From Raillietiella orientalis (taxonomy: Eukaryota): DNA of 64,000 nucleotides. The position numbers and the translations under genes were made by a program. The stretch covers positions 806,001 through 870,000 of the forward strand of contig JAYWIR010000052.1 of the NCBI GenBank assembly GCA_036172245.1, read 5' to 3'. Positions 13,739 through 64,000 of this stretch are shown piece after piece. The stretch's first letter is position 1; every line of letters begins with the position of its first letter. The notes beneath the pieces were generated by a model that was not told the origin of the DNA, ran no database searches, and saw only the letters and a program-made list of their open reading frames with translations.

Positions 13739-14390
13739 CCCGCGCTGTAGGCCGGGCGGCTGCGGTCTCTCCGCACGCATGTGCCTCCAGGTGTCGCGGG
13801 TTCCAATCCCGCCGGGGAAACGACGGATCGACGCAAGAAATGAAGGGGTGCGCCATGGGTTTCGAGTGCCACCGCGGGATGGTGCTGATTCGACACTGAT
13901 GGAAGCCGGAAACCCCGGATGCACGCATCGCCTGGCCGGGAGTGAGAGTTGATCCTCCGGGTCATTCCAAGATATCGAGGGTTCCTCTGGGGTTCCTTCT
14001 CTGGTTTTTCAAAATGGCCGTGCCATGGAGCTCGTCGATGCTTCCCTCTTGGGTCGGCTCTCCAGAGTGCCAAGAAGCCCGCTGCTCCCTCCTCAGAAAA
14101 ACTGGGAAGCGTCCCTTTTGGGGTTCTTTTTTGGGGGAGGGGGGGGGGGACCGAGGAGCGGATCCTTGCCGGGTTCCCTCCCAAGCGTGAAAGGAAGGGA
14201 CTCATTCCTCCGGACACCTTCCTGGATTTATAGAGTGGTCCCCCATCACTTGAAGGGCTCGACACACATCCGGGAGGCGCGGACATCGTTGTAGAGCTTC
14301 GAGGGACTCCCGGAAGGAGGCGAGTGGTTCTTCAGCTCTCCCTGAGAACCAAAAAAGAAAAAAAAAAAACCAGGAGAACCCCAGAGGGAT
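13739..14390 (+). mobile_element. tRNA-headed SINE-like element, copy 2
   Basis: The head ccgcgctgtaggccgggcggctgcggtctctcc...gggttccaatcccgcc is followed by the shared core gggtttcgagtgc...tggccggga...gatcctccgggtc.ttcca.ga and an A-rich run at 14351-14369. Confidence 0.7.
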
Positions 14391-14970: not shown

Positions 14971-17804
14971 GTGGAGCCCGTCATGCCTCGGCAGGGAGAG
15001 CGCCCAAGAGATACCCCCCCTCCCCGCTGCGGGACTCCCGCTCGCACTGCTGGGATCCGAGAGGCGCTCTGGCACTTCGGCGCCGCCCCTTCCGAGGAGT
15101 CAACGCTCCCGACATCCACCCAAGGGCCACCCTCCTGAGACCTCCGTCGGGCCTCCTACGCGCGAGGGACCAACGGAACAGCCCAGTCCGAGAGCGGAGT
15201 CGCGAGGGGGGGGACCTTCGAACTGCTCTTGGGCAGATGGGCCGCCCCATTCCGTTCCCTGTTCCTGCGCGACGAGGGCCATCCCCTTCCCCATTTCTTT
15301 ATCCTCTCCCTCCTCCTCCTTGATCCCATCCCTTGCGCAGGCACTCCGGACTCGGCCTGAGACCGTGAAATTCGATTTCAAATGGACGGCCCGGCTATCC
15401 GCGATGGAGAGGTCACTCCAGGGAGTTTATTCCTTGAAAAAAAAAAATGAATACACGAAAAATAGGAAGCGAATTCCCAAGAAGGACGAGCTTGAGTCCG
15501 CAGGGAGCGGTCACCGACAAGCAGGTCGGACCAATGAGGAGTCAGAGCAGGAAAAATAGGGAGAGCGGAGAAATAATTGAAAACTTGGGGAGCGGGCCTG
15601 CTTCTTCCACTTCTTCTTTACGGCCTTGAGCAAGATGAAGGGGGGGGGGCCGTTGCGATCTTCGTGCAGAACGGGGTCACCTTGCTGAGTCTCTCAGGGA
15701 GTTGAGCGGCTCCCCGCCGCCACCGCGAGCAGTGGCTCCACAACCGCGCTGGGAGCTCACCCCGCAGCGTCGCAACCGCTGCTCCACACGCGGAGGCCCC
15801 CTTCCCCCCTTGCCCGAGGTCCAGCACCCGGCACCGACTGAAGAAGAGGCGCTGTCGGAACGCTCGCGACCTCGGTCCTGCAGTCCTTGCGGCTCCGCGG
15901 ACCGCGGTGGTCATCCCCCGTGCGGGAAGAACAGGAAGGGGGCCGACGGGCGGCGTTCGCAGCGCGTCGAACGCCCTCGCGTTTCCGCGGAAAGGAGGGA
16001 TCTCTCCGGCCTTTTTTCTCCCCCCCCCCCGCGTCTCGGGCGTTCTCCGAGTAACCTGCTTGCACGCAAAGCATCCATCGCGCCGCGCTCGTTCGTTCCT
16101 CTTAAGCGGGGCGACACGTACGTGCATTTATGGGCGTTTCGTTTCCTCGAGAGCAGACCCGCGTAATGTGCGAAGACGTTGCTCCGATGCAGCTGGCGTT
16201 CGTCTGGTTGTTTTTTTTTCTTTTCTTTCCTTCTTCTTCTTCTTCTTCTACTTCTTTCCCTTGCTAACGTGCGTGAGAGAAGTGAACGAATGGTGAAAAA
16301 TGAAATCCTGGAATTAAAGGAGAGCAAACAAACAAACCCCTCTTAAGAACGCGACTGCATTCCCTCCGCGCTTCCTCCTGGCAAGGCAAGTGAAATGTCT
16401 GTTGCGTTTTCCAAGCAGGGGGGATGATGATGCCGGAAGTTGCAAGACATCCGCTGGAGGAGTTGAAAGCTATCACGGAATTCATTACACCACGTCCAGA
16501 AATCATCCAGGCTTATGCAGGGAAGAGTAACAAGATTCTTCTCTTCTACTCGAAACGGGATAGACACAGACCTTTGGTGCCACAAGGGGCGTATTTTTTC
16601 CTTTTCCCTCTCTCTCTCCTCCTCCGAGGGGAAGGGAAATCGAATGAATGCGGTCGAAAGAAGGTGCGAAAGTGTAGAAGGATCGGTCGGGAAAAAGAAA
16701 GAAACGGACTCTACAGATAATTAGGATTTTCTGGGATCTTGGAAAGATGATGGAACCTGGAATCCCTCACGCCGGGATACGTGTTTCCTTTCTTGTTCGG
16801 GGGAAGAGGAGATGCTGCTCCGTACTAATCAGTCGCAAGATCCTTCCTGACAACAAAGCGAGATGCTGACCGAAAAGAAATGCTTCGTTTCGAAGTCGTT
16901 CTTGCGTCTTCTGCGTCGGACGCGAGGGACTCCAGCATCCGCGCTCTCGTCTGACGACCCGCGAGAGCGGAATGGCCATTCCGCCGAGTCTCACGAAGCC
17001 AGGAGAACTGGCGAAGAAATCATGCCATTCCAGAGGCACTCTCGTCGCTGGCTGCGAGAGTTTCGAAGAGGAGGAACAGCTGCTGGTATCCGACAGTTTC
17101 AAACGATGATGTTTCTCCTAATAAGAGTGCACAGAAGGAAATGGTGTTTTCTGACTCGGAGGAGCGTGCTCTTGCATTTGGGAGAGTTTGGAGGTTTTCT
17201 CATTGCCGCTTTGTGAGATAATTTGTGTTGAAGATGAAACGGTCGTTATGAGCCAGGCACAGGATGAGAACCTTCAGTTTGCAAAGCAGAGCTTCAAAGT
17301 CCTCAGAAATTCCTCGAGTTCACAGTCGAATTCGAAACTGTTATTAATGGATCGTTGGCTGCAGCTTTTCTTGTTTGCTTTACATTTTTGCTGCTTGCTC
17401 CACTGATGACTTTACCAGCTATTACCGTTTGCATGTATCGGGTTCTCTGAAGAAGGTCATCATAAATAGTTGTCGAAATCGCCGTGGTAGAATTGCATTT
17501 GCTCTTCGTTTGACCATGTTCGCAAATGTCGCTCCTCAGCTCTCGTCCTTCTTCCTACTGTCCAATTTTTCCAACTTCCCTCGAAATGGAAAAATCATCC
17601 ACCCTTGTTCAACTCGTTTCTTCAAAATCCTCAACGTCCCCCAAATTGCCGCAAACCCTCTTTCTCGCCTTACCCTCACTTATTGAGTTCCTAATTTCTC
17701 CTTTTAAGTCACTTCTGATGGTAACATTTCCCTACTCCTTATTCTATCCTTTAAATCACAGAATCATCCGTTATTACAAACGATCATTCCTAGTAATATT
17801 ATTG

Positions 17805-17944
17805 ATTGTTAGAAGCTACCAGATATTGTTAGAAACCACGACACATTGTTGGAAAATATCACACATTGTTAAAAACTGTCACTCATTGTTAGAACCTGTC
17901 ACTCATTGTTAGAAACTGTCATGCAGTGTCAGAAACTATTACAT
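17805..17944. repeat. 20-bp-period minisatellite, 7 units (ATTGTTAGAAACTGTCACTC-like)
   Basis: ATTGTT at 17805, 17825, 17845, 17865, 17885 and 17905, and AGTGTC at 17925. Confidence 0.95.
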
Positions 17945-24370: not shown

Positions 24371-24695
24371 ACCCACCAAGCTCAAGAGGAGCACGGAATG
24401 CTTCCCCTGGAGCCTTCCTGGAGTGACAGGGCGGTATCCTTCTGAGGTTTCCCCCCTCCCTATAACTTGAAGAGTCACGCGCACGCACCACTGGGAGGTG
24501 TGGACAGCGTCGAAGAGCTTGGCGAGCTCTCGTGAGGTGGCGAACGAAAAAAGAAAAGCTGGGAGGAAAGCAGTGTTGGTCCAAGACTCCGTAGGCCGGA
24601 CGAAAGGGTGTGGGCTGGAACAGCGGTGGTCAACCTGAGGCAGCGCTTGTCCCATCGAGAATGTACTTTGGATGGTTGCATTCCCTATTCTTTGA
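24370..24695 (-). mobile_element. L1/Tx1-like RT N-terminal fragment (copies at 33665-33992 and 43129-43455)
   Basis: 'SSPHPFVRPTESW...LAKLFDAV...VTLQVIGRG...GYRPVT' resembles KSPGPDG..EF / L..LFN / ITLIxKxG / WRPIT. Confidence 0.65.
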
Positions 24696-24899
24696 ATCCC
24701 GGCCTCTCCAGGACGTTTTGTGAGCAATATGCGTGAAATTGGGGAGGAGAAGGACCTTTGAGGGATCCATGGACGGTCAGAAGCCGTTCTGATGCAGCGT
24801 CTCTCGGGATGCCCTCGATGCGCGGAAAAGAGGCAGTGAATAAATAGATGAAAGGTATGTACGTGTTACCTCACGGGGAGGGCAATGGTGAACCTCAGG

Positions 24900-27270
24900 A
24901 CGCGTGCAATCCCAGTTCTACCCTTTCTCAGCTCTTCATCTATGTGGGAGAGTCTCCTTCTTCTCCTCGGAACTTTCGGGCGGATCCGCTCTGTACCACG
25001 GTACTGTCCAAAAGAACGGCCGCTCTGCCATGTTCCACACTCCCGGTACTGCCGCCTCGATGCTGTCCCCCCCCCCATACTGCCGCATACAGTGGGATGT
25101 TCCCGTATCCTCATTCTGGATAGAATCCGTTGCAGGATCTGAGTCCAATTCTCCCGCTTGCCTTTCTTGGAGTCTCCGCTCCCACCTCTGGCAACGCAGC
25201 GCTCTGTCGGTCACCGCCCGCGTCCAGCTACCACGGAGTGAGGATTTCTTCACGCGTGTGCGTTCCGCGGTTCTGCGAGCAGCTTCCCATCCCGGAAGAA
25301 ACCCCGTCCGTCGCACGCTTCCGGGGATTCGCGACCACAAATGCCACGGCTCGCTCTCTTCAACTCGCGCTCTTCGACGGTCCCACAGGGGTTTCCACAC
25401 ATACAGGTGAGTTCCATTCCAGACGTCGTCCGCCGGTTTCTGGTATTGGACATCCAATGCTCAACAGAGAGGGGGAAAAAAACGCAAAGTGCGCTCGTAG
25501 AGCCTTTTCGAAGTCCCTGGTCCAACTCCATGGTTTTCCTGGAGCTGGATTCTGTGTCGCCTGAGGGAGTCTGCTCGCTCATTCCACATCCCTTCTCCTC
25601 TTCCGCCTCCAGTCAGCTTTCGAGAGTTGTTTTCAGGCTCACGTCTCAAGCACGCGGATGGCTCTGCTCCCTGCCCTCCAACACGTTCCCTCCAAACAAA
25701 GTGCCACCACGTCTCCAGAAAGCAGAGCAGGCGCTCGGCGAAAACCTGTTTCCAAGGAGACTGGTTTTACCCGCCGGAATGGGCCGCGGTGCGGAACACC
25801 TTCGTGGTCTCCCTCCTTTGCCCCCTGCAGGAACACATCAGAAAGCGGACGAAAGTCTTAGAATCGCCCTTTGGAGCATGAGGAGACACCGAGTCCGACT
25901 GAGGGAATTCTGTGCTCCGCGTCGGGACGGAGGACTCGGCATCCTGACTCTGGAGCGGATGAAGCTCCAGCTCCAGTTCCAAACGCTTGCCCTCGTGGCG
26001 AAGATGTGGAGCACCACTTGGTTAGCCTCTGCACGCCTCCTCGTCCAGCATGCCACAAGCAGCGTGGGACTCTTATCCTTCCTTGCATGCCGTCGCCTCA
26101 ACATCTCTCACTGCGACTGCAGCTTCGGAGGATGATAACAGGATGAATATCAGCTGGATCTCGTGCCGCCCCCCGAAGACTAGTGCTTGCTTACAGGAAA
26201 CCGTTTGCACGTGGGCGAAGCAAACGAGCGATGCGCGGGAACAAGCACAGCGTTTGCTGAGCTGTTCCCATAACAACTGCTCTCTCCGGGAGATCCTGGA
26301 ACAACCTATGAAGAGTGCGTGGGCAGAAAGAAGCTCCCTCACCGGCAGCGCCGCCCTCCCCGAGTGAACATATGGGCAGCAGCCTTCCGGCAAAGATGGG
26401 AGTTCAGTATGGAAATCTCTGGCAGGAGAAGAGGACCGGGTGATTGGACGACGGGCCTGCATACAGATGCTGCGGTCCCAAGTGCCCCACCTGGTGGACT
26501 TTTGCTCTGGGACGACCTGCTGTGGATGTTCCAGAGGATGACCTGCAGTGATCCCCAGTGCTTTTGGACAGACACGCTCTCCCCTTGAAGTGGAGGGATT
26601 TGACGCTGCTGCCGCTGCACTGGAGCCTCCCGTGCAACGCCCGCTGGCATCGTTGGACACGGGCGGTCGGGGTGAGCCCAAACTGCGCCGGGTGCGGGCA
26701 GCGCGAGTCCCTCCCGAACCTGCTCGTGGATCGTTACGCCCTCTGGCGCCTCCGGAAACGCTTCGCTGCGACCCAAGCAACCCCCGGTGGCGACTCCAGG
26801 CACGCTTTACGATCCCTCCTCCTACGCGACGTTCTCCGGCCAGCATCCTCGCTAGCAGCACCCTGCTGCCTACGCGGGATCGTCTCTGTCTGGAGCGACG
26901 CAAGAGGAGGACCGAGCGACAGGGGTGCCACATCCACGTTGCCATCCGCTTCGTGAGGATGGCAACGATATGGCCCCACCTGAAGGGATAGCATGCAGCA
27001 AGAGCTTGCCGGCATCCTCGAAAGGATGCAGAGGACCACCCTCAGCAGGACGTGACCCTTTCCTGCACCTCCCCATCCCAAATTTGTCTATTTATTCTTA
27101 TTCTTTTCCTTTTTATCTCCTCCCCCTTTTGTTGATGTGGCGGACTTCACCGGTCGGAGCACCGGTATCCTGGCAGGCTCCCGGTAAAACGGACGTGGTT
27201 GGACCACCGATCCAACCAACGCATTGTAAATGTTTATTTTATAAATACATTAAATAAACGCTCCGGCGCA
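24900..27270 (+). mobile_element. 5'-truncated L1/Tx1-like LINE (RT C-terminus, zf-RVT, 3' UTR)
   Basis: 'ALWSMRRHRVRLREFCAPRRDGGLGIL' and 'KWRDLTLLPLHWSLPCNARWHRW...SPNCAGCGQRESLPNLL', then a T-rich UTR and AATAAA at 27253. Confidence 0.85.
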
Positions 27271-30271: not shown

Positions 30272-30450
30272 CCCGGGTCCTCCGGGGCATTTATTTAATG
30301 TAAAAATAAAATTTTACAGAGATTATGGTTGGATAAGTACTCCAACCACGTCCATTCCAACGGGAGCCAGCCTGGTTACTGAGGTAGCGAATGGGTGAGA
30401 CCGACACCAGTAACCTGTTCCACCCGATGTGACAGGGAAGGTAAAAAGGG
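30272..30450 (-). mobile_element. LINE 3' terminus related to 27170-27270
   Basis: Its reverse complement ggctcccgttggaatggacgtggttgga-N7-tccaacca...tacattaaataaa aligns with 27176-27258. Confidence 0.75.
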
Positions 30451-32934
30451 TCGCCCTCCCTGCAGCCGCGGGCTCTGAGCGCTCGCTGTCCGCTTGCGAC
30501 GGAAGCACCAGGAGGTGCTCCTCTTGCACAGGGTTTTGGATGCCGGCGCCGCCTCGTCTCCCGGGGGAGTCGCATCCTTCAAACTTGCCTGTGGCTGCTG
30601 AGCTGCCCTGGTCTCCCGGGAACTGCGACGGAGGCGTTCCCACACTGGAAGGACACCGCCCGCGACCTGCATCGACGACTCTTCTCTGGGCGCGGCGGAC
30701 TCGCGGATGGCACGGAGATGGCGACGAAGGGCGGCGGTTGCATTGTCTCCATCGTCGCAGTCCGCCATGCGCTGGATATGGTGGCGCTCAGGGAGATCGC
30801 TCCGTGATGGCTCAGCTGCTGCCATCATGAGGACGGCCAGAGCCAAAGACGCTTGTCCAGCCCCACACTTCAACCCTTTATTCATTTATTGCCTCCCCCC
30901 AGCCGTTTCGGACTTTCAGAGCGGCCAACCTACGCGGAGGCCCACTCTCCCTCCTTGGCCTTTCTTTCGTTTTCCCTAGGGAACCGCGTGCCCAACCCGT
31001 TCGTTATTCGGAGTCGACGTTCCTGAATGACCGGGTCATGAATTTCCACGAAGTTCGCGATCGCTCCTTCCTTTGGCGAGGAGAATGAGGGAGGGTCCCA
31101 TTGACCTTTGCCGAAGGACAAACCTATCTGATGCCGGAGGGAGGCAGCAGATTGTTCCCCGAACTTGGCTGTGGTCCCCCACCGCTCTTCATCCCGTGTT
31201 CCAAGCGGCAGATGTCGGCTACCGTTCGATGTTCCAAATGATGAACGCACGACTGACGGGACCTTTCCAACGGGAACTAGGGAGGGAAGGCTGGACCAAC
31301 GGCTCGCAGGTTGGTGCGTGAAAATTCGTGTTGATCGAGGAGAAGGGAAAACAAGTAAGGACCAGGGAAGGGAGGGACGGGATCGTCAGTCAATCTTGGA
31401 ACTTGTGTGGAGCGATGCAAGCGGCGTCCCTTTTCGTTCCATGTGGTTGAGGATGGGTTCACCTCGCCACCTAGCTCGGGATGAAGGGTGGCGAAGTGAC
31501 CCTATACCGTGGCTTTTCCACCTTTGCTGGTGAGCCTCCGACACGCGTGCCGGTGATCCACTCATGGTCCGGTTAGGCGGACGGGCAGGAAGGGGAGGAG
31601 GTCCCGCCCAGCGTGACGCGGCGGTGCAGCAGCTCCTTTCGGGTGACTGTGGGGTGAAGCGCGTCTGCCCGCGAAAGCATTCCCCAACCGCTCCGCAGGG
31701 CGCTACGGAGGACTCCGAAAGAGCAGAAAGAGGAGGAGTCACTCAAGAGGGGGGAGTAGGGGCCCGTAGGAAGCCATGCAGTGTAGGGCCATCGCTCCCG
31801 TCTTCGTAGGAAAGGATCCGGGAAGGCCATAACTTCTCCCGAACCTCCCTCCTGTCAGAAGGTCGCTTTCACGGTCTCGCAACGAGGTGGAGCAACTGGA
31901 TGGGATGCTGCATGGCTCTCTAGACGAATGAGCACATTCGCAGAGTGCCTACCACTGGCCAGCCGAGCGGCTTGCCTTCCGGAGCCCATCTCCGGCACCA
32001 GCGCTGGATGCACATCAGGAGACGTTGCTACTGGAAACGAGCAGCCGCCACGGCGAGCGCACTCAAGGGCGAAGGCCTGCGGGGTTTCGAGCCCGCCGGG
32101 TTCCGATGTCACGCACCCCAACGGCCGCACGAGTGAATTCTGATGAAGCGGGAGCTGGGGACCCCCAAGTCTACCTGAAAGAGGGAGGGAAGGAGGGAGG
32201 GAGAAGTGACGAGTCTGCGGAGATGGTGGGTGCACGAGCGACCTCTCCAGCGTCCAGGAAGTCCCAGTGGCGCTCCAGAACTCGGATTTTCCTCCATACG
32301 GTCTCCCCCCCCTCTTTTCCTTGTTGTTCACTGGTCGAAAGCCGATGCAGCAGCGAAGGCTAAGCAGAACCTTCTCCGAACAGAGGAAGATCCAGGAGCC
32401 AACTTCGCTTGGCACCAGCCACAGCACCCGCCGCACTTGCCAGTTGCGACCACCATTACCCGGAGTGCCTATGCCAATGGGTGGATGCAACTGATGGGGT
32501 GGGAGGGTAGAACAAGTGCACACCGCGCAGCCGCAAGGTCGAATCATTCTCTCGGACTGCGTGCGACCCAGTCCCAATCCAGACCGCCTTCCCTCTCGGT
32601 TCCGGGAGGCGGAGAAGAAAAAAGGGAGCCAGAGGAAGGGGGCAGGAGAATCGTCACATCTTAATCACGTGATGTGGCCTCACGCAGCGCCATCCATGCC
32701 CACAGCCCATGCTCTTCGACCTGCGAGACCTCCCGAGGTCGCACTGTCGCTTCGTTGGGGCCAGGCTGGTGTACTTCAAACCCACGTTCCCCCTCGCCTC
32801 CATGTTCCTCTGAATGCTCTCGGAGAATTTCAGGAACACACAGGACGTTTGCTGCGCTGGCGATCCCGGGATCCCAGCAAGCCAGTCATCGGTGTACGGG
32901 CCGGGGCAAAGACTCAGGGAAAAGGAAGCTTTCA

Positions 32935-33260
32935 CCCGGCCGCCCCGAAGCGTTTATTGTCAAAAAAAATATACCTACACTTACATAGTCAATACAAATA
33001 GAAGCCATTCCTCCGTAGCAGGATTTCAAACCCAATACGTCGGAGCAAGTCCGGGATGCATTCCGTTCGCGAGCAGCTCGCCCGGAGGGGTCCGCAGAGG
33101 GAAAACCAAGTGGGTGGCAGTAAACAAAAAAGAGAATAAAACACAAAAAGGTTGTTTTGGAGAAGATTGGGGAGGGATGATTCAGAGGAGGGGCAAGCGA
33201 ACGAATAACGGAAACTATCCTGGCACGTTCTCAGAGCCCTGTGGGGGATGCAGGCAAGTT
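32935..33260 (-). mobile_element. LINE-type 3' UTR/terminus (partial mirror at 43880-44117)
   Basis: A T-rich tract followed by AATAAA-cgcttcggggcggccggg. Confidence 0.55.
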
Positions 33261-33267
33261 CCTTCTA

Positions 33268-33665
33268 CCGCGCTGGAGGGCGTGGTGGCGCCAGGCGTCG
33301 CTGTTCAAATACCACCCGAAGAAGGATCGACGACGCAAACAGAGGTGTAGTGGGTTTCGAGTGTCTTTCACCGCGAAGGATGGCTCCGGTTGGCCAGCTC
33401 GGGTGTGGCACCATAATGGAATATCATCTGCGACGCCGGGATTGAGTCGACCCTCGGGTCCTTCCCAGGACGATGAGGAGTCGTTCCAGGGTGCCTCCGG
33501 ATGGGGAAAAATGGACAAAATGGGGTGGCTCGGGGGTTCTTCGGAGGGGAGGAGGAAGAAGGGAAAAAGAGGCCGGCTTCATTGCCAGGTTTCCTCTGGA
33601 GAAAATTCAGAACGGATACCTAAGTCCTTTCGGAGGGAAGAACAAGGAAGAGGTCTTCTTCGGGG
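33268..33665 (+). mobile_element. tRNA-headed SINE-like element, copy 5 (mirror copy 6 at 43458-43870, minus)
   Basis: Head with an internal deletion; the core is nearly identical to 24030-24100. Confidence 0.7.
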
Positions 33666-33994
33666 TTACCCACCAAGCTCAAGAGGAGCACGGAATGCTT
33701 CCCCTGGAGCCTTCCTGGAGTGACAGGGCGGTTCCCTTCTGAGGTTTCCCCCCTCCCTATAACTTGAAGAGTCACGCGCACGCACCACTGGGAGGTGTGG
33801 ACAGCGTCGAAGAGCTTGGCGAGCTCTCGTGAGGTGGCGAACGAAAAAAGAAAAGCTGGGAGGAAAGCAGTGTTGGTCCAAGACTCCGTAGGCCGGACGA
33901 AAGGGTGCGGGCTGGAACAGCGGTGGTCAACCCGAGGCAGCGCTTGTCCCATCGAGAATGTACTTTGGATGGTTGCATTCCCTATTCTTTGAAT

Positions 33995-34800
33995 CCCGGT
34001 CGCTCCAGAACGTTTATCAGCAACATAAATACAACTGGTAAGGGGTCAAACTTTCAAGGGAAGCACGACCCAGCGGCGTGGGCAGTATCAAAGAGCTTTA
34101 CGAGACCCCTTTCCCCTCCTAAGGTGGCGAACTGATTCTTCAGCAGTCCGTGTGACGTCTGTGAGGCATGGCCGTCTTTTCGCGATTCTCGCGAAGGAAA
34201 CAGCGTGCCTCCCTCGCTGCAGCTTCTCTCCGTCGCTGGCGACGTTGCGCCACTCGTAGAGAAGCGTCTCAGGACCTCCTTTCCAAGTCGTCCATTAGGA
34301 GGATTTCAGGACCGCGGCGAAACATTCCCACGCACCCCTGAAGGCAGCACGCTCGAGCTACAGGTGTGGCTTCTCGTTTGCCACACCGGGCACAGTCCGG
34401 ACCCCTGGTCCGGTGGTCTTGCGGCAGGATCCAATCGGCACCGAGAATAGAGGTAGACATGTCCCACCCACAACTCGGGAGCAGACACTTGAGGAAGCGA
34501 CAAGGAACCAGAAGGGAGACCGAGCGATGAGGTCACGGCCTCCCGAATTCACCAGACGCAGCTAGTGATTCTCCCGCAGGCAGGCGCTTTAGACGGCGCA
34601 ACCTGCCGGCTGTGGCAGCACGGAAGGTCTCTCGAACAGCAACGAGGGCGTTGGTAAAGAAGAAACCGCATGCACCAAGGACTAATGAGCATCCCCTTCA
34701 GGAATGCGTACACGAGAAATTCAACAGAACTGGCGCTGACCTCAGCGGCATTTGGACAGCGGGGAGACAGGAGTCTTCCAGGGTAAGCGAAGGATGTGCT
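33995..34800 (-). mobile_element. LINE ORF2 C-terminus (zf-RVT-like) and 3' end; mirror at 42320-43126 (+)
   Basis: 'WILPQDHRTRGPDCARCGKREA'; ends in gataaa-cgttctggagcgaccggg. Confidence 0.6.
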
Positions 34801-34887
34801 TTCGGGGAAGGCCGGACCAGGATCCCGATCGGGGGTCGAACTTCGGGCAGCCACACATGCGCCTCCAGTCCAGAGCGACATCGCTGC

Positions 34888-36407
34888 GCCTCCATCGAAC
34901 GGCACGCGGACCGGGCGGAGGCGCCGCCACGCGCAGGACCGCGTCGCGCGCGCATCTCCCGCTCGCCGGCCAAGACCCCGGGCTCCCCGCGTGCGGACTC
35001 TCGCGCGCCTCCCGCTTGGGCTCCCGGTGAGGCGAGCGGTGCCCCGCTGGGGAGGTACAGGGGGCGCGTGGAAGGGGTCCTCCAGCCACGCCCTCCCCCT
35101 CCGCATCCGGTGGTCAACGCGATTTGCCGCCTCCCACCGACCGACCCCTTCCCGGAGCTCCACCTTCACCCGCGGTGAAGGGGTTGCCGTGCCGTTGGAA
35201 GGGCGCGGGTGCGCATCCGGCGCTTCGCGTCGACGGGGAGGTCTCTCGCGGGGGCCGATGTCGCGCGCTTCCGCGAGCGGCATCGGGGCGGCGTCCTCCG
35301 CTGGTCGCCTCGGCCACGGGCGATGACCCCACTCAGCGCCAGCCATTGGGCCAGCATCGATTTTTGCGCGGTCGCCGAAGGCGCGGGCAGAAAGCGGCGC
35401 GCTCCGACGAACGCCACTGCAGAGTGCCTTCCTGGGGGGGCCGGACATCCTGGGACTCTCGGAAGGGGGGCGGAACGGGGAGAGGGAATCAAGCAGACGG
35501 CGAAGGTGGGCGGCTGACGGGTGAAGGTGGAGACGGAGAAGGTGGTGAACAAACGTGGCTGACGAATGGAGATGGATGCGGCGGAGAAAAGTGGCTGGTG
35601 GGTGGAGCTGGAGGCGGAAAAAGTGACTGAGAAACGTCCGTCACTTTTGGCTGGGAGGTGGAGGACAAACGTGACTGGGAGGTGAAGGTGGAGACGGGAG
35701 AGGTGATGGAGAAAGGTGGCTGGCGGGCGGAGGTGGAGTCTGCAAAGATCGCCGACGTACAAAATTGGTTGGAGGGTGGAGGTGGAGACGGAGAAGGTGG
35801 TGGGCAAACGTGGCTGACGAGTGGTGGTAGAGGCGGCAAAAGTATCGGAGAAAGGTGTTTGGCGGGTGGAGATGGAAGCGGCGAAGGTGAAGAAGGCTGG
35901 TCGTTGTTCGTTCCCTCTGGAACATCACTTGTAGAACACCAACGCTGGAAATCCGACTACCGTTGTAGTGTCCGGGCTTCGTACTGGAATCGCCTCTTCC
36001 TTCGAACGTCCCCTGACGCCTCTGGAAGGAGAAGCGAAACAAATAAAGTTAATGCCTGAGTCTTCGCTTCTCATTCAAAGGGGTCTCCGTCCCAATATGG
36101 CACTCCTGAGTTTTCGTCGAGTGCCGGCAAGTAGGGAGCGATGCTTGCTGGAAGAATCGAACCTTCCATGGCGGCAGGAGGGGTACATCAGGAAGATGTT
36201 GCAGCATCCAGCGCTCCCGTGGCATTCGTTTGAATGATGTGCTGGGCCATCTGTGGTGACGGGGCAGCCCCTTGTAGATCGCAGTCTTCTCCGAAGGAAG
36301 AGGAGATCTTGTGGATAACGCCTCACCGGCGAGGGGGAGATGTGAGCGCGACGCGGTCCTGCGCGTGGCGGCGCCTCCGCCCGGTCCGCGTGCCGTTCGA
36401 TGGAGGC
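34888..36407. repeat. 1.5-kb segment bounded by 82-bp inverted repeats (34888-34969 / 36326-36407); mirrored in the right arm
   Basis: gcctccatcgaacggcacgcggaccgggcggaggcgccgccacgcgcaggaccgcgtcgcgc and its exact reverse complement. Confidence 0.9.
35500..35900. repeat. Degenerate G-rich minisatellite (~42-bp unit); mirror at 41245-41645, diverged relative at 39930-40090
   Basis: ggctgacgggtgaaggtggagacggagaaggtgg-like units recur. Confidence 0.75.
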
Positions 36408-37617
36408 TCAGGGATGGTGCGCTCCGCTGCTCTGGATGGCTGCTCACCTCCACCCCAGCTGGGGTGGAGGTGCGCACGTGCTCGTGCATAACTGGAAACA
36501 CCCCTCGTCGTGTGACCTGTTTCACCCATCAGTCGGGTCGGTGGCTGTAGCAGTAAGATGTGGCACCCTTTGTTCTCTCCTCGAGATCCTTGGCTACGTT
36601 TTCGACTGACTGGAAATCCCATCTGGATTTCCTTCCTCCGCTGGGATACTGCTTCGACTCATGGCGGGGCAGTAACTCAGTCCTCGGCTGCAATCGCAAT
36701 TCCCTCAAGTCCCGATTTGTTCCTGGGGATTGCTCCTTGGCCGTAGCGCGCTTCCGGCTGGCTTCGGAGATGTGGGAGACGCGACGTGGACCCAGGTCCC
36801 TCGTGCTCCTCCCGCTCTTTTCCGACATCCAGCTCGGGTCGCCTTTCACTCTTCTGCTGGCGCGCGTTTTGTTCGTTTTCCTGGACGATACATCCTCGAG
36901 ACTGCAGTGCCGGAAGCTGCTGGAATCAGCGCTCCGGTCCACTGCAAATGAAGATGCACACTAGAGGTTCTCTGAGAGTTGGAAGGGCTCGCGAGATCAG
37001 GTGACCACCAACCGTGCAGTCACAGCGTTTCTTAGCCATCTGCTTCCTCGCTCTCGAAAACCCATCCTCCGCGGATGCAACTAACTAATGTGCGCGGTCA
37101 ACAGGTTTCCAGCGACCGCTGGTAGAAAAAGGTCCCTGACTGTAGAGAGAATGCTCCTCGAGGTCATGCTATGATTCTTTCGAATGGTTGAGGGAGTGGT
37201 AGAGGCTATCTTCGAGGGAGGATCCGAAGAGCAAAAGCAGAAATTTCAAAGACCGGGTGAGGAACAACAAGCAGCCACCTGGAAGCACAAGGCACGCCAA
37301 AAGGGCTCAACTGAAGACGTAGCGCTGGAGTCGGCAGTGAGCACCGGAAGAGAAACTTGCGGGAAGACGGAGGGGAACGTCGGTCTGGGCAGATGAACAC
37401 AGGACCAATTACAACGAAATGAGAAGCCAAAGAACTGAAACCAGAGAAGAAAGCTGGATAAGGGACTCGAACGACAAGAACGAGATCACCAGAAAAGCAA
37501 AAGCCGTCGCTGGAAGACCAAATTGAGGTGCGGCAATGATGGATGCAAGAAAAACCGGACCAACAACAACAACAAGCACCATAAGAGACGGAGAGTGTTT
37601 GAAGGGAAGCTGAGCAG

Positions 37618-38608
37618 CTCTCCTTCCGGCTGCGAAGGCACGGCAACCATCAGCAGTCATCGGGGGTGCCAAAGCGAGCCGTGGCGCATCTCGGGTTGTC
37701 GATTCCGCGTCCTCCTCTCCTTGCCGACGGCTGTCTTTGCGGAAGTGATGGATGATCGCAGCTTCCTCCACCTCATTAGCCGACATGGAAGCGCCGAAGC
37801 TTTATCCCCAGCTTGAAGGAATATATCAGGATGCGGGAGCTCAAGAACCAGAGCATGGAAGGATACTCCGAACGCACATTAAACTTCCGGTTGCCAAGGA
37901 GCAGTCCGGGAGGCATCAAGAAGTACAAGAAAGGGTCCCATCTGGAGAATTATTCCCAAAAGAGCGAAGTCATGCAAGGAGGGTTGAAGGACAACACTGG
38001 AAGCAAGGGTAGAAGGGGGAAGGAGGAGGGTAGAAGACCAACTGCAGCAACAGGTGCGCCGGGGAAACGGACCACGGAAGCGTCGTGGGGAACGGAAGGA
38101 ATATCAGCGTGGGAAGCAGCAGCAGCAGATTCTTCTTGAACAGCTGCAAGAACGCCTTGAGCGAAGAGAAAAAAGCGATGGAGATGCGGTTATCGAGAAG
38201 GGAAAATCCATCTGAAAGATCTAGAGCTGGAAAGAGGATAGAGGTTCGAGGAGATGACGCCTGCACCTAGTGGGCAACTCCAGGAGGTGGACAGGGAGTG
38301 GTGGGAGGAGACTGTCGAGGATCAGGCGGGTGAGCGTCTTTCCGTCTTTCTCTTCCGGGACGAGCGTCCCCCTCCTCAAGAACGGGAAGGCCTTCCTCCC
38401 GCAACACCACCAATTCATCAAGGAAAACGTCGGCGCTTCCACGTCGGCTAATGAGGTGGAGGAAGCTGCGATCATCCATCACTTCCGCAAAGACAGCCGT
38501 CGGCAAGGAGAGGAGGACGCGGAATCGACAACCCGAGATGCGCCACGGCTCGCTTTGGCACCCCCGATGACTGCTGATGGTTGCCGTGCCATTGTAGCCG
38601 GAGGGAGG
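37618..38608. repeat. Nested ~180-bp inverted repeat (37618-37798 / 38430-38608)
   Basis: The peptide SANEVEEAAIIHHFRKDSRRQGEEDAESTTRDAPRLALAPPMTADGCRA is encoded on both strands. Confidence 0.95.
37790..38000 (+). mobile_element. Possible Ty3/gypsy gag remnant
   Basis: 'KEYIRMRELKNQSMEGYSERTLNF' resembles the retrotransposon gag 'L.Q..SV.EY..RF' motif; weak. Confidence 0.3.
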
Positions 38609-39329
38609 GAGGACGGAGGGGAAGGGAGAGGAAGAGTGAGCAGCCATAACGATGCTTCTGGGAGCCTTCTGGAACACCGCGGCTCTGATGTCACGCATCT
38701 CGTGTCCCCGAATGACTCCCGCGCGTGCTACGCGCCCCCGCTGGATGGGCACTTTCACTGATTGGGACCGCACGCCTTCCGCCCTCGAGACACCCGGGGG
38801 ATCCCTGTCTCGCTCCGCGGGCGTGGTGTTATTTTCAGCACCATTAGCAACGGCCTCGTTCCCTCCTCTGTCCTCCTTCCATTGGATCCGGCGTCCTGGC
38901 CACAGAAGCGCCCTGTCGTCAAAAGAAAGAGTTTATTGTTCTTGGCTCGGGGCAGTCACTACATCTGGTTATCTGCACCAGAGGAGGCGCAGGAGTAAAC
39001 GGACTTCCCCCAGTCCTTGTGGGAACGCTCCCGACCCGCGGCATGCATCGTTCCGCCCGATCCGTCAGAACGAAGTGAAGAGAGAGACCCCAGTCTACCC
39101 TCCTGCGACTCCCTAGAGTCTCGGGGTATTTTCTGGGAAGAAGACGGAGCTCGACTCCATGGGAGAGGATGAGAGGGAGGGGACGCCGTCACCACCCGCC
39201 AACTGATCTGAAGGTGCGATCAGCTGGCAATAGAACAATAGGACTCTGTCCGGTCGACCACGGCGGCAGGACAGCGTTGGGAAGCGTACCGGGATTCGCC
39301 CCCTCCCTCCCCCCCCCCTCTCTTCCTTG

Positions 39330-39790
39330 TCGAACGCCTGCTTGCCGTTCAGAGAACAGGAGGAAAGCGTCACTCTTTTGCCGACCCGTTCCCTTCGAGC
39401 CAAGGGATTTGGCAGCCACTGGATGCAGCCAGCCATCTGCTATTCTTGGCATCCTCCACCCTTCCCTTCTGGGAGACGCGAAAGAGTCGCTTGGGAGATA
39501 ATCGACGGTCCTCCCGTTGCTTTCTAGCCCAACTGATCGGCTGCTGCGGAAAGAGCCGTCCACTCCTTGCAGGACGCCTCCTTCCGCATTTTCTGATGAA
39601 GATGCTCACGAAACCAAGCCCCACGATTTCCAGACAAGGTCTCGCCTCAGATTTCCGTCTCATACCGAGCTCATCTGGTCCCTACCTCTCCCACCCCATC
39701 CAACACAGTTCGCCCGTTCAAACCTCAGCCTGCTGCCGATGGCAAGACTGCGCACCACAGATCGTCTTGAAGATGCACCAAAGCATTCCC
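39330..39790 (+). mobile_element. Ty3/gypsy integrase core remnant
   Basis: 'GILHP', 'LPFWET', 'PTISRQG' and 'QPAADGKTAH' resemble GLLxPL / PWE / IVSDRG / HPQTDGQTER, in order. Confidence 0.5.
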
Positions 39791-40158
39791 TCACCATAGG
39801 TTAATAGACCACTATAGTGGTCTCTTCCTACCGTTCCTTATGCTATAGACTGTAGCTAAAATTTTCTATCCACCAGCATCCAACCATGCTTGTGATTTGC
39901 AAGTAAGCTCCAGAGAGAACAAACAACGACTCTTCGTGGCACTCTTCACCCGCCAGCCGCTCTTCACCTCCACCTTCACCATCCGACACCCTTCGCCGCC
40001 TTCGAATCCACTTATCAGCCACCACCACCCTCCAGCTACCTTGAACGCCCCACTTTCATCCGCCAGTCCTTTCGCTAACTCCGCAACCACCAGTCATCCA
40101 CTGCAGTCTGCGTCCAGTACGAAGGCGATGGTGACCGACGGGTGGCGAGAAGGCGATT

Positions 40159-43100
40159 GAGAACCCCTAGTGCACCCTCTAGTGTGCATCTTCATTTGCA
40201 GTGGACCGGAGCGCTGATTCCAGCAGCTTCCGGCACTGCAGTCTCGAGGATGTATCGTCCAGGAAAACGAACAAAACGCGCGCCAGCAGAAGAGTGAAAG
40301 GCGACCCGAGCTGGATGTCGGAAAAGAGCGGGAGGAGCACGAGGGACCTGGGTCCACGTCGCGTCTCCCACATCTCCGAAGCCAGCCGGAAGCGCGCTAC
40401 GGCCAAGGAGCAATCCCCAGGAACAAATCGGGACTTGAGGGAATTGCGATTGCAGCCGAGGACTGAGTTACTGCCCCGCCATGAGTCGAAGCAGTATCCC
40501 AGCGGAGGAAGGAAATCCAGATGGGATTTCCAGTCAGTCGAAAACGTAGCCAAGGATCTCGAGGAGAGAACAAAGGGTGCCACATCTTACCCTGCTACAG
40601 CCACCGACCCGGACTGATGGGTGAAACAGGTCACACGACGAGGGGTGTTTCCAGTTATGCACGAGCACTGTGCGCACTCCACCCCAGCTGGGGTGGAGGT
40701 GAGCAGCCATCCAGAGCAGCGGAGCGCACCATCCCTGAGCCTCCATCGAACGGCACGCGGACCGGGCGGAGGCGCCGCCACGCGCAGGACCGCGTCGCGC
40801 TCACATCTCCCCCTCGCCGGTGAGGCGTTATCCACAAGATCTCCTCTTCCTTCGGAGAAGACTGCGATCTACAAGGGGCTGCCCCGTCACCACAGATGGC
40901 CCAGCACATCATTCAAACGAATGCCACGGGAGCGCTGGATGCTGCAACATCTTCCTGATGTACCCCTCCTGCCGCCATGGAAGGTTCGATTCTTCCAGCA
41001 AGCATCGCTCCCTACTTGCCGGCACTCGACGAAAACTCAGGAGTGCCATATTGGGACGGAGACCCCTTTGAATGAGAAGCGAAGACTCAGGCATTAACTT
41101 TATTTGTTTCGCTTCTCCTTCCAGAGGCGTCAGGGGACGTTCGAAGGAAGAGGCGATTCCAGTACGAAGCCCGGACACTACAACGGTAGTCGGATTTCCA
41201 GCGTTGGTGTTCTACAAGTGATGTTCCAGAGGGAACGAACAACGACCAGCCTTCTTCACCTTCGCCGCTTCCATCTCCACCCGCCAAACACCTTTCTCCG
41301 ATACTTTTGCCGCCTCTACCACCACTCGTCAGCCACGTTTGCCCACCACCTTCTCCGTCTCCACCTCCACCCTCCAACCAAATTTGTACGTCGGCGATCT
41401 TTGAAGACTCCACCTCCGCCCGCCAGCCACCTTTCTCCATCACCTCTCCCGTCTCCACCTTCACCTCCCAGTCACGTTTGTCCTCCACCTCCCAGCCAAA
41501 AGTGACGGACGTTTCTCAGTCACTTTTTCCGCCTCCAGCTCCACCCACCAGCCACTTTTCTCCGCTGCATCCATCTCCATTCGTCAGCCACGTTTGTTCA
41601 CCACCTTCTCCGTCTCCACCTTCACCCGTCAGCCGCCCACCTTCGCCGTCTGCTTGATTCCCTCTCCCCGTTCCGCCCCCCTTCCGAGAGTCCCAGGATG
41701 TCCGGCCCCCCCAGGAAGGCACTCTGCAGTGGCGTTCGTCGGAGCGCGCCGCTCCCTGTCACGCGCCTCTTGGCGACGCGGTTCCTCCCTCCCCTGGGGC
41801 GGCGTCCTCCGCTGCTTCAGCGGAGGACGCCGCCCCGATGCCGCTCGCGGAAGCGCGCGACATCGGCCCCCGCGAGAGACCTCCCCGTCGACGCGAAGCG
41901 CCGGATGCGCACCCGCGCCCTTCCAACGGCACGGCAACCCCTTCACCGCGGGTGAAGGTGGAGCTCCGGGAAGGGGTCGGTCGGTGGGAGGCGGCAAATC
42001 GCGTTGACCACCGGATGCGGAGGGGGAGGGCGTGGCTGGAGGACCCCTTCCACGCGCCCCCTGTACCTCCCCAGCGGGGCACCGCTCGCCTCACCGGGAG
42101 CCCAAGCGGGAGGCGCGCGAGAGTCCGCACGCGGGGAGCCCGGGGTCTTGGCCGGCGAGCGGGAGATGCGCGCGCGACGCGGTCCTGCGCGTGGCGGCGC
42201 CTCCGCCCGGTCCGCGTGCCGTTCGATGGAGGCGCAGCGATGTCGCTCTGGACTGGAGGCGCATGTGTGGCTGCCCGAAGTTCGACCCCCGATCGGGATC
42301 CTGGTCCGGCCTTCCCCGAAAGCACATCCTTCGCTTACCCTGGAAGACTCCTGTCTCCCCGCTGTCCAAATGCCGCTGAGGTCAGCGCCAGTTCTGTTGA
42401 ATTTCTCGTGTACGCATTCCTGAAGGGGATGCTCATTAGTCCTTGGTGCATGCGGTTTCTTCTTTACCAACGCCCTCGTTGCTGTTCGAGAGACCTTCCG
42501 TGCTGCCACAGCCGGCAGGTTGCGCCGTCTAAAGCGCCTGCCTGCGGGAGAATCACTAGCTGCGTCTGGTGAATTCGGGAGGCCGTGACCTCATCGCTCG
42601 GTCTCCCTTCTGGTTCCTTGTCGCTTCCTCAAGTGTCTGCTCCCGAGTTGTGGGTGGGACATGTCTACCTCTATTCTCGGTGCCGATTGGATCCTGCCGC
42701 AAGACCACCGGACCAGGGGTCCGGACTGTGCCCGGTGTGGCAAACGAGAAGCCACACCTGTAGCTCGAGCGTGCTGCCTTCAGGGGTGCGTGGGAATGTT
42801 TCGCCGCGGTCCTGAAATCCTCCTAATGGACGACTTGGAAAGGAGGTCCTGAGACGCTTCTCTACGAGTGGCGCAACGTCGCCAGCGACGGAGAGAAGCT
42901 GCAGCGAGGGAGGCACGCTGTTTCCTTCGCGAGAATCGCGAAAAGACGGCCATGCCTCACAGACGTCACACGGACTGCTGAAGAATCAGTTCGCCACCTT
43001 AGGAGGGGAAAGGGGTCTCGTAAAGCTCTTTGATACTGCCCACGCCGCTGGGTCGTGCTTCCCTTGAAAGTTTGACCCCTTACCAGTTGTATTTATGTTG

Positions 43101-44117
43101 CTGATAAACGTTCTGGAGCGACCGGGATTCAAAGAATAGGGAATGCAACCATCCAAAGTACATTCTCGATGGGACAAGCGCTGCCTCGGGTTGACCACCG
43201 CTGTTCCAGCCCGCACCCTTTCGTCCGGCCTACGGAGTCTTGGACCAACACTGCTTTCCTCCCAGCTTTTCTTTTTTCGTTCGCCACCTCACGAGAGCTC
43301 GCCAAGCTCTTCGACGCTGTCCACACCTCCCAGTGGTGCGTGCGCGTGACTCTTCAAGTTATAGGGAGGGGGGAAACCTCAGAAGGGAACCGCCCTGTCA
43401 CTCCAGGAAGGCTCCAGGGGAAGCATTCCGTGCTCCTCTTGAGCTTGGTGGGTAACCCCGAAGAAGACCACTTCCTCGTTCTCTCCGAAAGGACTCCCCG
43501 GAAAGGGTCCGTTCTGGAATTTCTTCTCCAGAGGAAACCCGCAATGGAAGGGCCTCTTTTTTCCTCTTCCTCCTCCTCCTCTGAAGAGAACCCCGAAGGC
43601 ACTCGATGGAAGGTCCATTTTTTCCCATCCGGAGGGGCACCCTGAACGACTCCTTAATGTCCTGGAAGGACCCGGAGGGTCGACTTCCGATTCCGGTCAG
43701 TCAAGGGGAGCATTCCCCTTCTCATGGTGCCACACCCGAGCTGGCCAACCGGAGCCATCCTTCGCGGTGAAAGACACTCGAAACCCACTACACCTCTGTT
43801 TGCGTCGTCGATCCTTCTTCGGGTGGTATTTGAACAGCGACGCCTGGCGCCACCACGCCCTCCAGCGCGGTAGAAGGAACTTGCCTGCATCCCCCACAGG
43901 GCTCTGAGAACGTGCCAGGATAGTTTCCGTTATTCGTTCGCTTGCCCCTCCTCTGAATCATCCCTCCCCAATCTTCTCCAAAACAACCTTTTTGTGTTTT
44001 ATTCTCTTTTTTGTTTACTGCCACCCACTTGGTTTTCCCTCTGCGGACCCCTCCGGGCGAGCTGCTCGCGAACGGAATGCATCCCGGACTTGCTCCGACG
44101 TATCGGGTTTGAAATCC
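40159..44117. repeat. Right arm of ~3.95-kb inverted duplication
   Basis: Reverse complement of 33021-36972. Confidence 0.98.
40200..40580 (+). mobile_element. Possible gypsy integrase C-terminus/chromodomain-like remnant followed by a purine-rich tract
   Basis: 'RVSHISEASRK' (~VFHVSxLK) and 'KQYPSGGRKSRWDFQSVENV', then gaggagagaacaaaggg-tg; same strand as the integrase core and downstream of it. Confidence 0.3.
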
Positions 44118-55739: not shown

Positions 55740-55992
55740 GGCTGCAGAGCTGCAACCTCGCAGGGAGGTGACCTCGTCTGCGGAGCTGCGGACCTCTTTA
55801 GGCGGTGACCTCGGCTATGGAGCTTCGATCTCGCTGGGAGGCGACCTTAACTGCGGATCTGCAACCTCTCCTGGCAGCGACCTCTTGTGAAGGGCTGCAG
55901 CCCTCTCCGGCAGGTGACCTTTCCTGAGGAGCTGAGACCTCGTCTAGAAGTGACCTGATCCACGGGGCTGCGAATTCGCCGAGAGGCGACTT
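55740..55992. repeat. ~36-bp-period tandem repeat, ~7 units
   Basis: (g/a)g(t/c)gacct recurs at ~55768, 55804, 55840, 55877, 55913, 55949 and 55985; minus-frame consensus RSPPxEVAAPQx. Confidence 0.85.
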
Positions 55993-61397: not shown

Positions 61398-63018
61398 ATC
61401 TGCGACGAGAGGAACAGTCTGCAGCTGCTTCTGTAGCCCTGAAGATTTTTCCCCTCCTCCCTCCTTCTTCGCTTGCCTACCGCGGAAGACCGGGGCAGAG
61501 AATCCTCGCTCCCTAGGGGACGCGTCCGTGCAAGGAGGTCGGGGTGCTTCGACGCCTCGAGACACGGACGGGACGTGAGCGCGGGAGCCACTGCTGCACT
61601 GGTGCCGTCCCCTCGAGTGAGCGAAGACGTTCATTGCCTTCTCTCACTCGAGTTGGCAGCTCCACAGACGAGCTCACCTCCCTGCGAAGTTGCAGCTCTG
61701 CAGCCGATGTCCCGGAGTGACTTTAAAGGATGTCGTAAGAGAAGTGGATGCTGCAGCATCTCTCCATCGCCTCCGCTGGCGCGTTCCTCTAGGTACCGCG
61801 AGACTTGGGGCTCTCTCAGCACTGAGTCGCAGTCCCTCGTCCCCAGGGACTCTATGTCTGCGTCCATCCCCTTCCTCCATCTTGGAGACCACCGCTGCGT
61901 GACCTATGGGGTGCAGGGGATCTCTGCCACTCAGGGCATCCCTAGAGGCGACCGGTGAGCCTGCAGAAATGGCAACGTCGCGGAGTTGCGGTGTCCCTGC
62001 GAAGAGCTTCCATCCCTTTCGAAGCTGAGCATCTCCCGGGAAGGATCACGGACAAGCGAGGAGGCGCGCAGCAGAGGACAGCCCTCTGACCTCACCGCCT
62101 GCCGCTTTCGTCCCATCTTCCTCAGTGGGATGTCAGGAAGGTCGCTTCGACCGGATTCGATCACGTGGACACTCGCGCCCTCGCCGCTTGACGGTGCCCC
62201 CTCGGACAGCAGCAACCTCCGCACCTGCGAACGCCTGGATGAGGCGAGGAAGACGACGGAAGTGGCGCAGGGAATGCGAACTCGGGAGCTGCTGCTGCTC
62301 CGGCGCCTCCCTCTGCCATCCCCTCGAGTGAGAGGAAGACGTTCCTCACCAGCGGACGCCAACGCCTCCGCCTGCAGACACCTCGGGGGGCTGGGGAGAT
62401 TCTCTGGATTGCGCCAGCAGGTCTCCGTCTGGTCTGTTCAATCCTCTGGCGAGTAAAGTCGGGAGGAAAAACGGGAGCGTTTCTGGCGAGACCGCCTGAG
62501 ACGTGCAGCGCCTATTCCGCACCATTTCGCGAGGATCCGTCCCAGGGACTCCTAAGACCGTCCCCCACGAAAGGGCAGCCGCACTATATGAAGCACTTTC
62601 TGCATAAGGACACAGCAGGCGGGTTTCGAGGCAGGGGCTCTTCCCGGAATCCGCTAGAGGCTTCTTCCCGATCCCTCTCCTGGATAACTGGGATCTGGTC
62701 CCCCCTTCGCCCTCACTCCGAGACCGAGATCGCCGCGCGCGGTCAGTTGCCACCAAAGTTCGCGTCATGAGTGGACCCGGGGCGGGGGAAGGTAGTGGAC
62801 TCGACCTCGCAATGCTTTTTCGTGTATATTTTTTTGGTTTTATTCTTATTTTCGTTTGTCCCTGTCCCTCCCCTGCTGCCAAGGTAAACCTCGCCGGCCT
62901 GCGTGCCGGTCCTCAGCAGGTTCCTATGGTTAAATCTGTAACCTGGCAGGGCCAAACGTCCTGCCACCAGCTTGTATATTTATTTTTTTATATAAAGAAA
63001 CGCTCTGGAGCAACCGGG
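61200..63018 (+). mobile_element. Short LINE-derived element: ORF1-like remnant plus LINE-type 3' end
   Basis: 'EETAKAAVRPAGVHPFQ' and knuckle-like 'RCVTYGVQG', then a T-rich UTR, a hairpin at 62944-62966 and the terminal motif at 63001-63018. Confidence 0.4.
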
Positions 63019-63052
63019 TGTCAAGCCATATCGCTTTCTCCGTATCACTGGT

Positions 63053-63900
63053 AGCAGCCTTCCGGCTCGATGGGAGTTCAGTATGGAAATCTCTGGCAGG
63101 AGAAGAGGACCGGGTGATTGGACGACGGGCCTGCATACAGATGCTGCGGTCCCGAGTGCCCCACCTGGTGGACTTTTGCTCTGGGACGACCTGCTGTGGA
63201 TGTTCCAGAGGATGACCTGCAGTGATCCCCAGTGCTTTTGGACAGACACGCTCTCCCCTTGAAGTGGAGGGATTTGACGCTGCTGCCGCTGCACTGGAGC
63301 CTCCCGTGCAACGCCCGCTGGCATCGTTGGACACGGGCGGTCGGGGTGAGCCCAAACTGCGCCGGGTGCGGGCAGCGCGAGTCCCTCCTGAACCTGCTCG
63401 TGGATCGTTACGCCCTCTGGCGCCTCCGGAAACGCTTCGCTGCGACCCAAGCAACCCCCGGTGGTGACTCCAGGCACGCTTTACGATCCCTCCTCCTACG
63501 CGACGTTCTCCGGCCAGCATCCTCGCTAGCAGCACCCTGCTGCCTACGCGGGATCCTCTCTGTCTGGAGCGACGCAAGAGGAGGACCGAGCGACAGGGGT
63601 GCCACATCCACGTTGCCATCCGCTTCGTGAGGATGGCAACGATATGGCCCCACCTGAAGGGATAGCATGCAGCAAGAGCTTGCCGGCATCCTCGAAAGGA
63701 TGCAGAGGATCACCCTCAGCAGGACGTGACCCTTTCCTGCACCTCCCCATCCCAAATTTGTCTATTTATTCTTATTCTTTTCCTTTTTATCTCCTCCCCC
63801 TTTTGTTGATGTGGCGGACTTCACCGGTCGGAGCACCGGTAACGCGGCCGGTTTGATATGAGAAGGATGTGGTTGGAGCGGTGGTCCAACCACATTTATT
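63053..63900 (+). mobile_element. 5'-truncated copy of the LINE 3' part at 26378-27167
   Basis: ~790 bp of near-identical direct repeat, including SPNCAGCGQRES. Confidence 0.92.
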
Positions 63901-64000
63901 TTTCTTTGGAATGGACACTCCGGAGTACACGGGTGGTCATCAAAGTTCGCGTCGTCTCGTCATTCCCTCGACCGGCTTTCGGCTTTCTCATTTGGGCCTT

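Follow-up and report, generated by a model that had tools for sequence, protein, structure and literature searches.

A large group of L1-like LINEs in this genome ends in a conserved module, AATAAA-YGY-CCCGG-N5/6-CCGGG-T-NNN-A(1-4), in which a 5-bp inverted repeat encloses a variable loop, and this module is the element's own 3' terminus and not its landing site, because it follows the ends of ORF2, lies inside the target-site duplications (TSDs) and because none of 50 sampled sites was convincingly empty. The motif was noticed in a stretch of 64,000 nt of Raillietiella orientalis DNA (the window), for which the initial annotation had left two alternatives standing, a conserved structured 3' terminus and a conserved insertion target; the former is borne out, with a structure other than the one it proposed, and the latter is not. 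Across the 210-Mb genome the motif was strongly enriched over controls and found at LINE 3' ends. A pattern near the earlier consensus had 34 matches (control 0), and a loose pattern with the middle freed, AATAAAYGNNNNGGNNNNNCC, had 3,689 exact matches, against 25 when the pattern was reversed. For the intact core YGYCCCGG-N5-CCGGGT the count is 2,261 (control 1), and an exact AATAAA precedes it in 1,683 cases. A metagenome scan for the exact motif returned 11 matches, none with LINE homology by tblastn, and these were treated as unrelated.

The architecture was read from 134 distinct instances in fetched loci, anchored on the hexamer and the 5' arm only, a sample that is enriched for motif-selected loci and for one family, with 35 copies of one loop type. 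Four to five base pairs are formed in 126 of the 134, around loops of 5 nt (99), 6 nt (23), 4 nt (3) or 7 nt (1) that show 39 different sequences, and an A stands at position 29 in 93% and at position 30 in 89% of the instances. That all loops are GNRA-like was rejected, since many of these 39 sequences are not. The self-complementarity ascribed earlier to the first 12 nt is true for the annotation's consensus only, and we rejected this 12-mer palindrome because the bases that it needs are the variable loop and the seven real copies form 2-4 of its 6 pairs. The stem is invariant in the main lineage and shows no covariation there. Preservation of G-U pairs in the window copies was at one point taken as evidence of RNA structure, and this was rejected because the larger sample shows no such bias (CA 6 and TG 4 at pair 10-24; CA 5 and TG 3 at pair 11-23); substitutions in the stem are as expected of neutral decay.

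The association with LINE ends holds from both directions. We took 40 ORF2 C-termini on protein homology alone, at 53-97% identity to two queries and distributed over two lists of 150 matches; 38 have the motif 183-303 nt past the stop, none of them on the wrong strand only, and the other two run into other sequence. Starting from the motif, we took the first 30 loose matches on contig C1: 24 lie after an ORF2 C-terminus and six show UTR similarity only (3 strong, 3 short). Cores without an exact AATAAA numbered 29 among the first 100 listed; of 20 that were fetched, 16 have a hexamer with one mismatch and 18 have ORF2 or UTR homology upstream, and the remaining two have neither homology but keep the T-rich run and a hexamer variant. 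Exact repeats of at least 12 nt between the downstream flank and the upstream region were present at 10 of 114 ends vs 0.23 in shuffles, three of the ten being long matches from tandem insertion or a related target. Clean TSDs flank two full-length copies of 5.9 kb (12 bp), a truncated copy of 2.2 kb (15 bp) and an insertion of 65 nt (13 bp). Since the TSDs begin 5-8 nt past the hairpin, the hairpin, the T-NNN and 1-3 A's are inside the element. The 65-nt insertion (locus L171, ~1453-1543) is a case of extreme 5' truncation, composed of 35 nt of UTR and the terminal motif.

In the window itself, all seven motif strings listed by the initial annotation are found at the coordinates and on the strands that it gave, and none has poly(A) after it, as it had observed (Table 1). 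The strings are real, but they amount to only five independent ends, as three come from one duplicated segment: a single event underlies 33995-34018 (-) and 43103-43126 (+), which lie in opposite arms of a 4-kb inverted duplication, and a third copy of this segment (96% over 761 nt) begins with 24698-24720 (-); the duplication accounts for the downstream flank common to the three sites. The description of all seven as LINE copies is likewise right in part. The copy at 27253, hereafter the anchor copy, is the only one of the seven with a recognisable ORF2 upstream within the window (tblastn), and those at 30295 and 62995 have 3' UTR similarity to LINE families, but no LINE body was found upstream of 32958, 34018/43103 and 24721, where the label rests on the motif and its genome-wide association; upstream of 34018 and 32958 there were only the window's own copies and 1 and 3 weak matches, respectively. 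The anchor copy is the least intact, with its terminus still in register; its ORF2 remnant has 44-57% identity to locus L146 (tblastx), and its 3' UTR is 76% like that of the 30295 copy over 103 nt. The UTR of the 62995 copy matches that of locus L006 (77% over 192 nt, E 2e-30), and the candidate TSD brackets both this end and the one at 63910. An approximate TSD search at the seven listed sites gave none that was convincing, and no LINE homology was found upstream of the candidate motif at 15402..15431. The window copies are decayed, since none of 138 window ORFs of at least 150 aa has a Pfam match; a six-frame regex for RT/EN signatures across the window also gave nothing convincing.

Table 1. 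Features of the window bearing on the terminal motif (strand as given; a point marks no strand)
Position	Strand	Feature	Basis
15402..15431	-	Possible additional motif, decayed: AATAAA and 5' arm, with 2 of 5 pairs formed	
24692..24721	-	Third, diverged motif copy, at the edge of a 761-nt segment common with 43106-43858; not independent	
25710..27034	+	Decayed, frameshifted 3' half of LINE ORF2, anchor copy (RT thumb to C-terminal Cys/His domain)	tblastn with this genome's ORF2s, best E 2e-49
27035..27252	+	3' UTR of anchor copy, T-rich ahead of hexamer	Between last ORF2 match and AATAAA
27253..27282	+	Terminal motif of anchor copy: AATAAA, 5' arm, loop CGCAC, decayed 3' arm AAGGA (3 of 5 pairs), terminus TGACAA	
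30266..30379	-	Remnant of 3' UTR with intact terminal motif (5 of 5 pairs), copy related to anchor	
32929..32958	-	Terminal motif, 5 of 5 pairs (two G-U); LINE body upstream not found	
33021..44117	.	4-kb inverted duplication doubling one motif (arms 33021-36967, 40176-44117)	97%
33989..34018	-	GATAAA variant of the terminal motif; one event with 43103	
43103..43132	+	The 34018 motif as duplicated in the second 4-kb arm	
62754..62766	+	Candidate 13-bp target-site duplication, left copy (right copy 63941-63953)	One match; no separate control
62805..63024	+	5'-truncated copy: 3' UTR and terminal motif (62995-63024, terminus TGTCAA)	
63053..63940	+	Further LINE 3' end, absent from the initial annotation: ORF2 C-terminus 63053-63708, decayed motif 63910-63940	tblastn

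Several other repeats were seen in the window. The arms of the inverted duplication contain long ungapped stretches that are 100% identical and surround a 3.2-kb spacer, which holds a further inverted pair (37620-37803 / 38424-38607, 96%). The LINE 3' regions at 26375-27218 and 63050-63892 are 97% identical over ~790 nt but lose this similarity abruptly in the final 100 nt ahead of their motifs, which suggests recombination or conversion. Nested inverted repeats at 55617-55789 / 61656-61828 (173 nt, 88%) and 60054-60268 / 61181-61395 (215 nt, 86%) are possibly the ends of DNA transposons, and a 20-nt unit forms a tandem array in an AT-rich stretch at 17805-17943. A link of the motif to tRNA, snRNA or rRNA loci, which had also been raised, found no backing in the window: no Rfam family was matched, and the single ARAGORN call, a tRNA-Arg(GCG) at 13728-13821, overlaps no motif, lacks Rfam support and is probably spurious.

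L1-clade LINEs are the textbook example of poly(A) dependence. Here, at least 8 A's follow the hairpin in only 3 places genome-wide (vs 2,261 intact cores), and the A-run is 2-4 long in 109 of 121 sampled ends, with a maximum of 7 and with part of the run belonging to the target, so that the long 3' poly(A) tail of the relaxed (poly(A)-recognising) L1s is missing. The elements nevertheless are APE and RT-bearing members of the broad L1 clade (including Tx1) with no close relative, as shown by their ORF2 domains, an RT that groups with L1, a CCHC ORF1, 5' truncation and TSDs. An intact ORF2 of 1201 aa, which ends 330 nt before the motif, matches Exo_endo_phos (E 3e-11) and RVT_1 (E 1e-19), and its best match among solved structures is human L1 ORF2p (E 7e-45 vs 2e-13 for R2). 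Full-length copies measure 5.9 kb, with the CCHC ORF1 ahead of ORF2, and TSDs of 11-15 bp. A search for relatives of ORF2 gave 198 homologues; of the 120 that were listed, none exceeds 32% identity. In a quick maximum-likelihood tree computed from 113 RT regions, rooted at its midpoint and free of curated Repbase labels and curated Tx1 sequences, the six rows from this genome form one branch (SH-aLRT 97) inside an 81-row group with vertebrate, plant and fungal L1-like proteins; the branch stands apart, at a fork that this quick tree did not separate from the vertebrate, plant, fungal and Tx1-like clusters. The genome's RTs did not group with the cluster that holds a fish protein bearing ZCCHC3-type domains, and ORF1 had no ZCCHC3-type Pfam match. 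There are many young, intact families, with copies 96-98% identical and open ORF2s of 1,200 aa. A divergent orientation of ORF1 and ORF2 was considered and rejected, since antisense nested insertions explain the layout.

One arm of the genome's RT branch is a sister lineage, with ~28% ORF2 identity, from which the motif is absent. Its copies end in AATAAA, 4 nt, a bulged CCCCA..TGGGG hairpin and AAA, which is the same design in another sequence, and the inner helix of this hairpin shows a C-G/G-C swap between two of its families. The sister-lineage hairpin would be the best evidence that the fold matters over the sequence. The same lineage (L062-L081; G000 C71, C53, C150, C26, C139, C114, C76, C33) also forms head-to-tail tandem arrays with a spacing of ~5.6 kb, often on short contigs, an arrangement that may resemble Zepp-like clusters.

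The targets of several families are also fixed; they lie just past the motif, within coding regions of other LINEs. The earlier suspicion of a Tx1-like target specificity is thus correct for individual families, which insert at fixed targets 5-8 nt past the hairpin, but the motif itself is not the target. In the young family of L082:2300-5902 (L102-L131, L132-L151), the junction reads GAAATCTC in 30/30 copies, and 24/30 are antisense in the codons of the APE LLQEIH region of sister LINEs, with 4 before an earlier copy of the family itself and 2 elsewhere; such a target-sequence preference is known from many Tx1-clade elements. These insertions carry 12-15 bp TSDs, and some are stacked in tandem at one site. 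Some of the LLQEIH sites may be segmental duplicates, but two or more host families are represented, as is a truncated copy flanked by a TSD of its own. The family of L083:2843-4711 (L193-L212), to which the closest intact relative of the anchor copy belongs, ends in TGAAAATCG, and about half of the 18 ends shown lie antisense at sister-LINE codons for RT AVDLHKAFD. Insertions of the sister lineage are found antisense in ORF1 of the L082 family and also next to one another in tandem.

As to what the module does, we think it fairly probable that it acts as a stem-loop of the stringent type in the RNA, fixing where reverse transcription starts after the transcript has been cleaved ~22 nt past AAUAAA. 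It would then probably be a new form of the tag with which other LINEs mark the end of their RNA for their own copying enzyme. Judging by the spacing, the Pol II transcript would be cleaved and polyadenylated ~22 nt past AAUAAA. ORF2p would bind the 5-bp stem-loop of the RNA, and target-primed reverse transcription would begin a fixed few bases downstream of it, in the first A's of the tail, so that almost no poly(A) would be copied into DNA. The invariance of the stem in the main lineage, with neither covariation nor G-U bias, speaks against this stem-loop reading, and a partner SINE that shares the tail only was not seen among the 50 sampled sites. A much broader reading, which seems to us doubtful, is that a whole deep radiation of the L1 clade has given up poly(A) copying, with a minimal hairpin as a ruler that sets the first base to be reverse-transcribed, the loop (5-6 nt) and the next 4 nt as address codes by which ORF2p would tell families apart, and a network of LINE-against-LINE targeting that exploits this precision for antisense insertion into the conserved catalytic-domain codons of one another (APE LLQEIH, RT KAFD, ORF1).

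The same module could potentially serve the formation of the RNA 3' end, as a mark for cleavage or termination that leaves an RNA ending in T-NNN-A with little or no poly(A), copied from its very end, and with the AAUAAA possibly hidden in a second helix. This would explain the missing tails without any special property of the RT, and it agrees with the fixed spacing to AATAAA and with a predicted pairing of AATAAA with the upstream T-rich stretch (mean 0.53 vs 0.29 shuffled; higher in 53/83 clusters). However, most intact cores have the exact AATAAA at the distance normal for a poly(A) signal, such signals commonly have U-rich elements upstream, and about half of the clusters, which are related and not independent, lack the upstream helix, so that we consider this explanation unlikely. 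If instead the inverted repeat acted as DNA, as a palindromic site for a dimeric protein of the host or the element (a termination, silencing or integration factor), the invariant arms and the nearly fixed spacing of 5-6 nt would be as at dimer-binding sites; yet the sister lineage has a different, bulged hairpin at the same place, and the motif is strand-polarised to the element end, with nearly all sampled copies being LINE ends and not host sites, which makes a role as DNA quite improbable.

Plain inheritance would ask less of the sequence, as the last 30 nt are kept by every 5'-truncated copy and could be alike by descent only, and 3' ends are indeed over-represented among truncated LINEs. 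We find it very improbable all the same, given that identical arms and a varying loop recur in families whose UTRs are unalignable and whose ORF2 C-termini are 37-53% identical. The notion of a conserved genomic insertion target drew on the downstream flank shared by three window sites and on a motif that stays constant where the UTRs vary. Those three sites are, however, one duplicated segment; the position of the motif inside the TSDs, downstream flanks that show no in-register alignment between different families, ORF2 or UTR homology upstream of most sampled cores and the absence of any Rfam family from the window leave this reading with hardly any probability.

These elements offer a whole lineage, in thousands of copies, that ends in a 30-nt module with a precisely defined junction, and with it a compact, testable system for how an L1-type ORF2p picks its RNA and its start point; site-specific, tail-free insertion is also of interest for retrotransposon-based gene insertion. 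The hairpin terminus overturns nothing previously held. A literature search, with subscription papers mostly outside its scope and Repbase/Dfam entries not covered, gave no description of this terminus; that scope does not establish the novelty of the exact motif, and hairpin tails and tailless L1 families are both already on record. Table 1 of Ohshima (2012, PMC3472496) gives L1 families without a 3' repeat in flowering plants (9/233) and green algae (5/15), so that taillessness alone is not new. A stringent way of reading the 3' end is known (PMC3472496, PMC1636434) in L2-clade and in some plant and algal L1-clade LINEs, and further stringent LINEs were compiled by Grechishnikova and Poptsova (2016, PMC5135761). 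That ancestral L1s recognised a particular structure at the 3' end (Ohshima 2012, PMC3472496) is a claim with few examples behind it.

The closest parallels described by Ohshima (PMC3472496) are the monocot 1a lineage (LINE1-1_ZM), an L1 with a conserved 3' hairpin, and the Chlamydomonas L1-1_CR, which has a SINE partner. As in the elements described here, these belong to the L1 clade and have a 3' terminus far better conserved than the body, with a predicted hairpin at the end. In LINE1-1_ZM and L1-1_CR, however, the stem varies with compensation while the loop UCU and the 3' flank CGAG are conserved, whereas here the stem is invariant and the loop varies; L1-1_CR ends in poly(A), whereas here there are 1-4 terminal A's and a hairpin fused to AATAAA; and partner SINEs exist there, whereas our 50 sampled sites revealed none. 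According to Nomura (2006, PMC1636434) and PMC5135761, the eel UnaL2, whose stem-loop with a GGAUA loop is required for retrotransposition, and the zebrafish ZfL2 share with our elements a 3' stem-loop that adjoins the terminus and has a loop of five bases; these L2-clade LINEs have a longer, bulged stem, a fixed GGAUA loop and a terminal (UGUAA)n at which reverse transcription starts, in contrast to the 5-bp stem, the variable loop, the lack of a terminal repeat and the different clade seen here.

The fixed targets recall the Tx1 clade, which, according to Kojima (2015, PMC4494074), likewise comprises APE-type families with a CCHC ORF1 that insert at fixed sites within other transposons, in some cases in the opposite orientation: Tx1 in Tx1D, Tx1-Mar in Mariner-N4_AMi, and Tx1-8_Crp and Tx1-4_AMi in LTR elements. 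The Tx1 targets given there, in animals, are DNA transposons, LTR elements, U2 genes and microsatellites, whereas the families described here insert into coding motifs of sister LINEs. With human LINE-1 they share the APE and RT layout, the length of the TSDs and the best structural match of ORF2p. Given a conserved 3'-terminal sequence able to form a stem-loop, the elements would appear, as far as sequence can show, to work like the stringent LINEs and not like the relaxed, poly(A)-type L1s.
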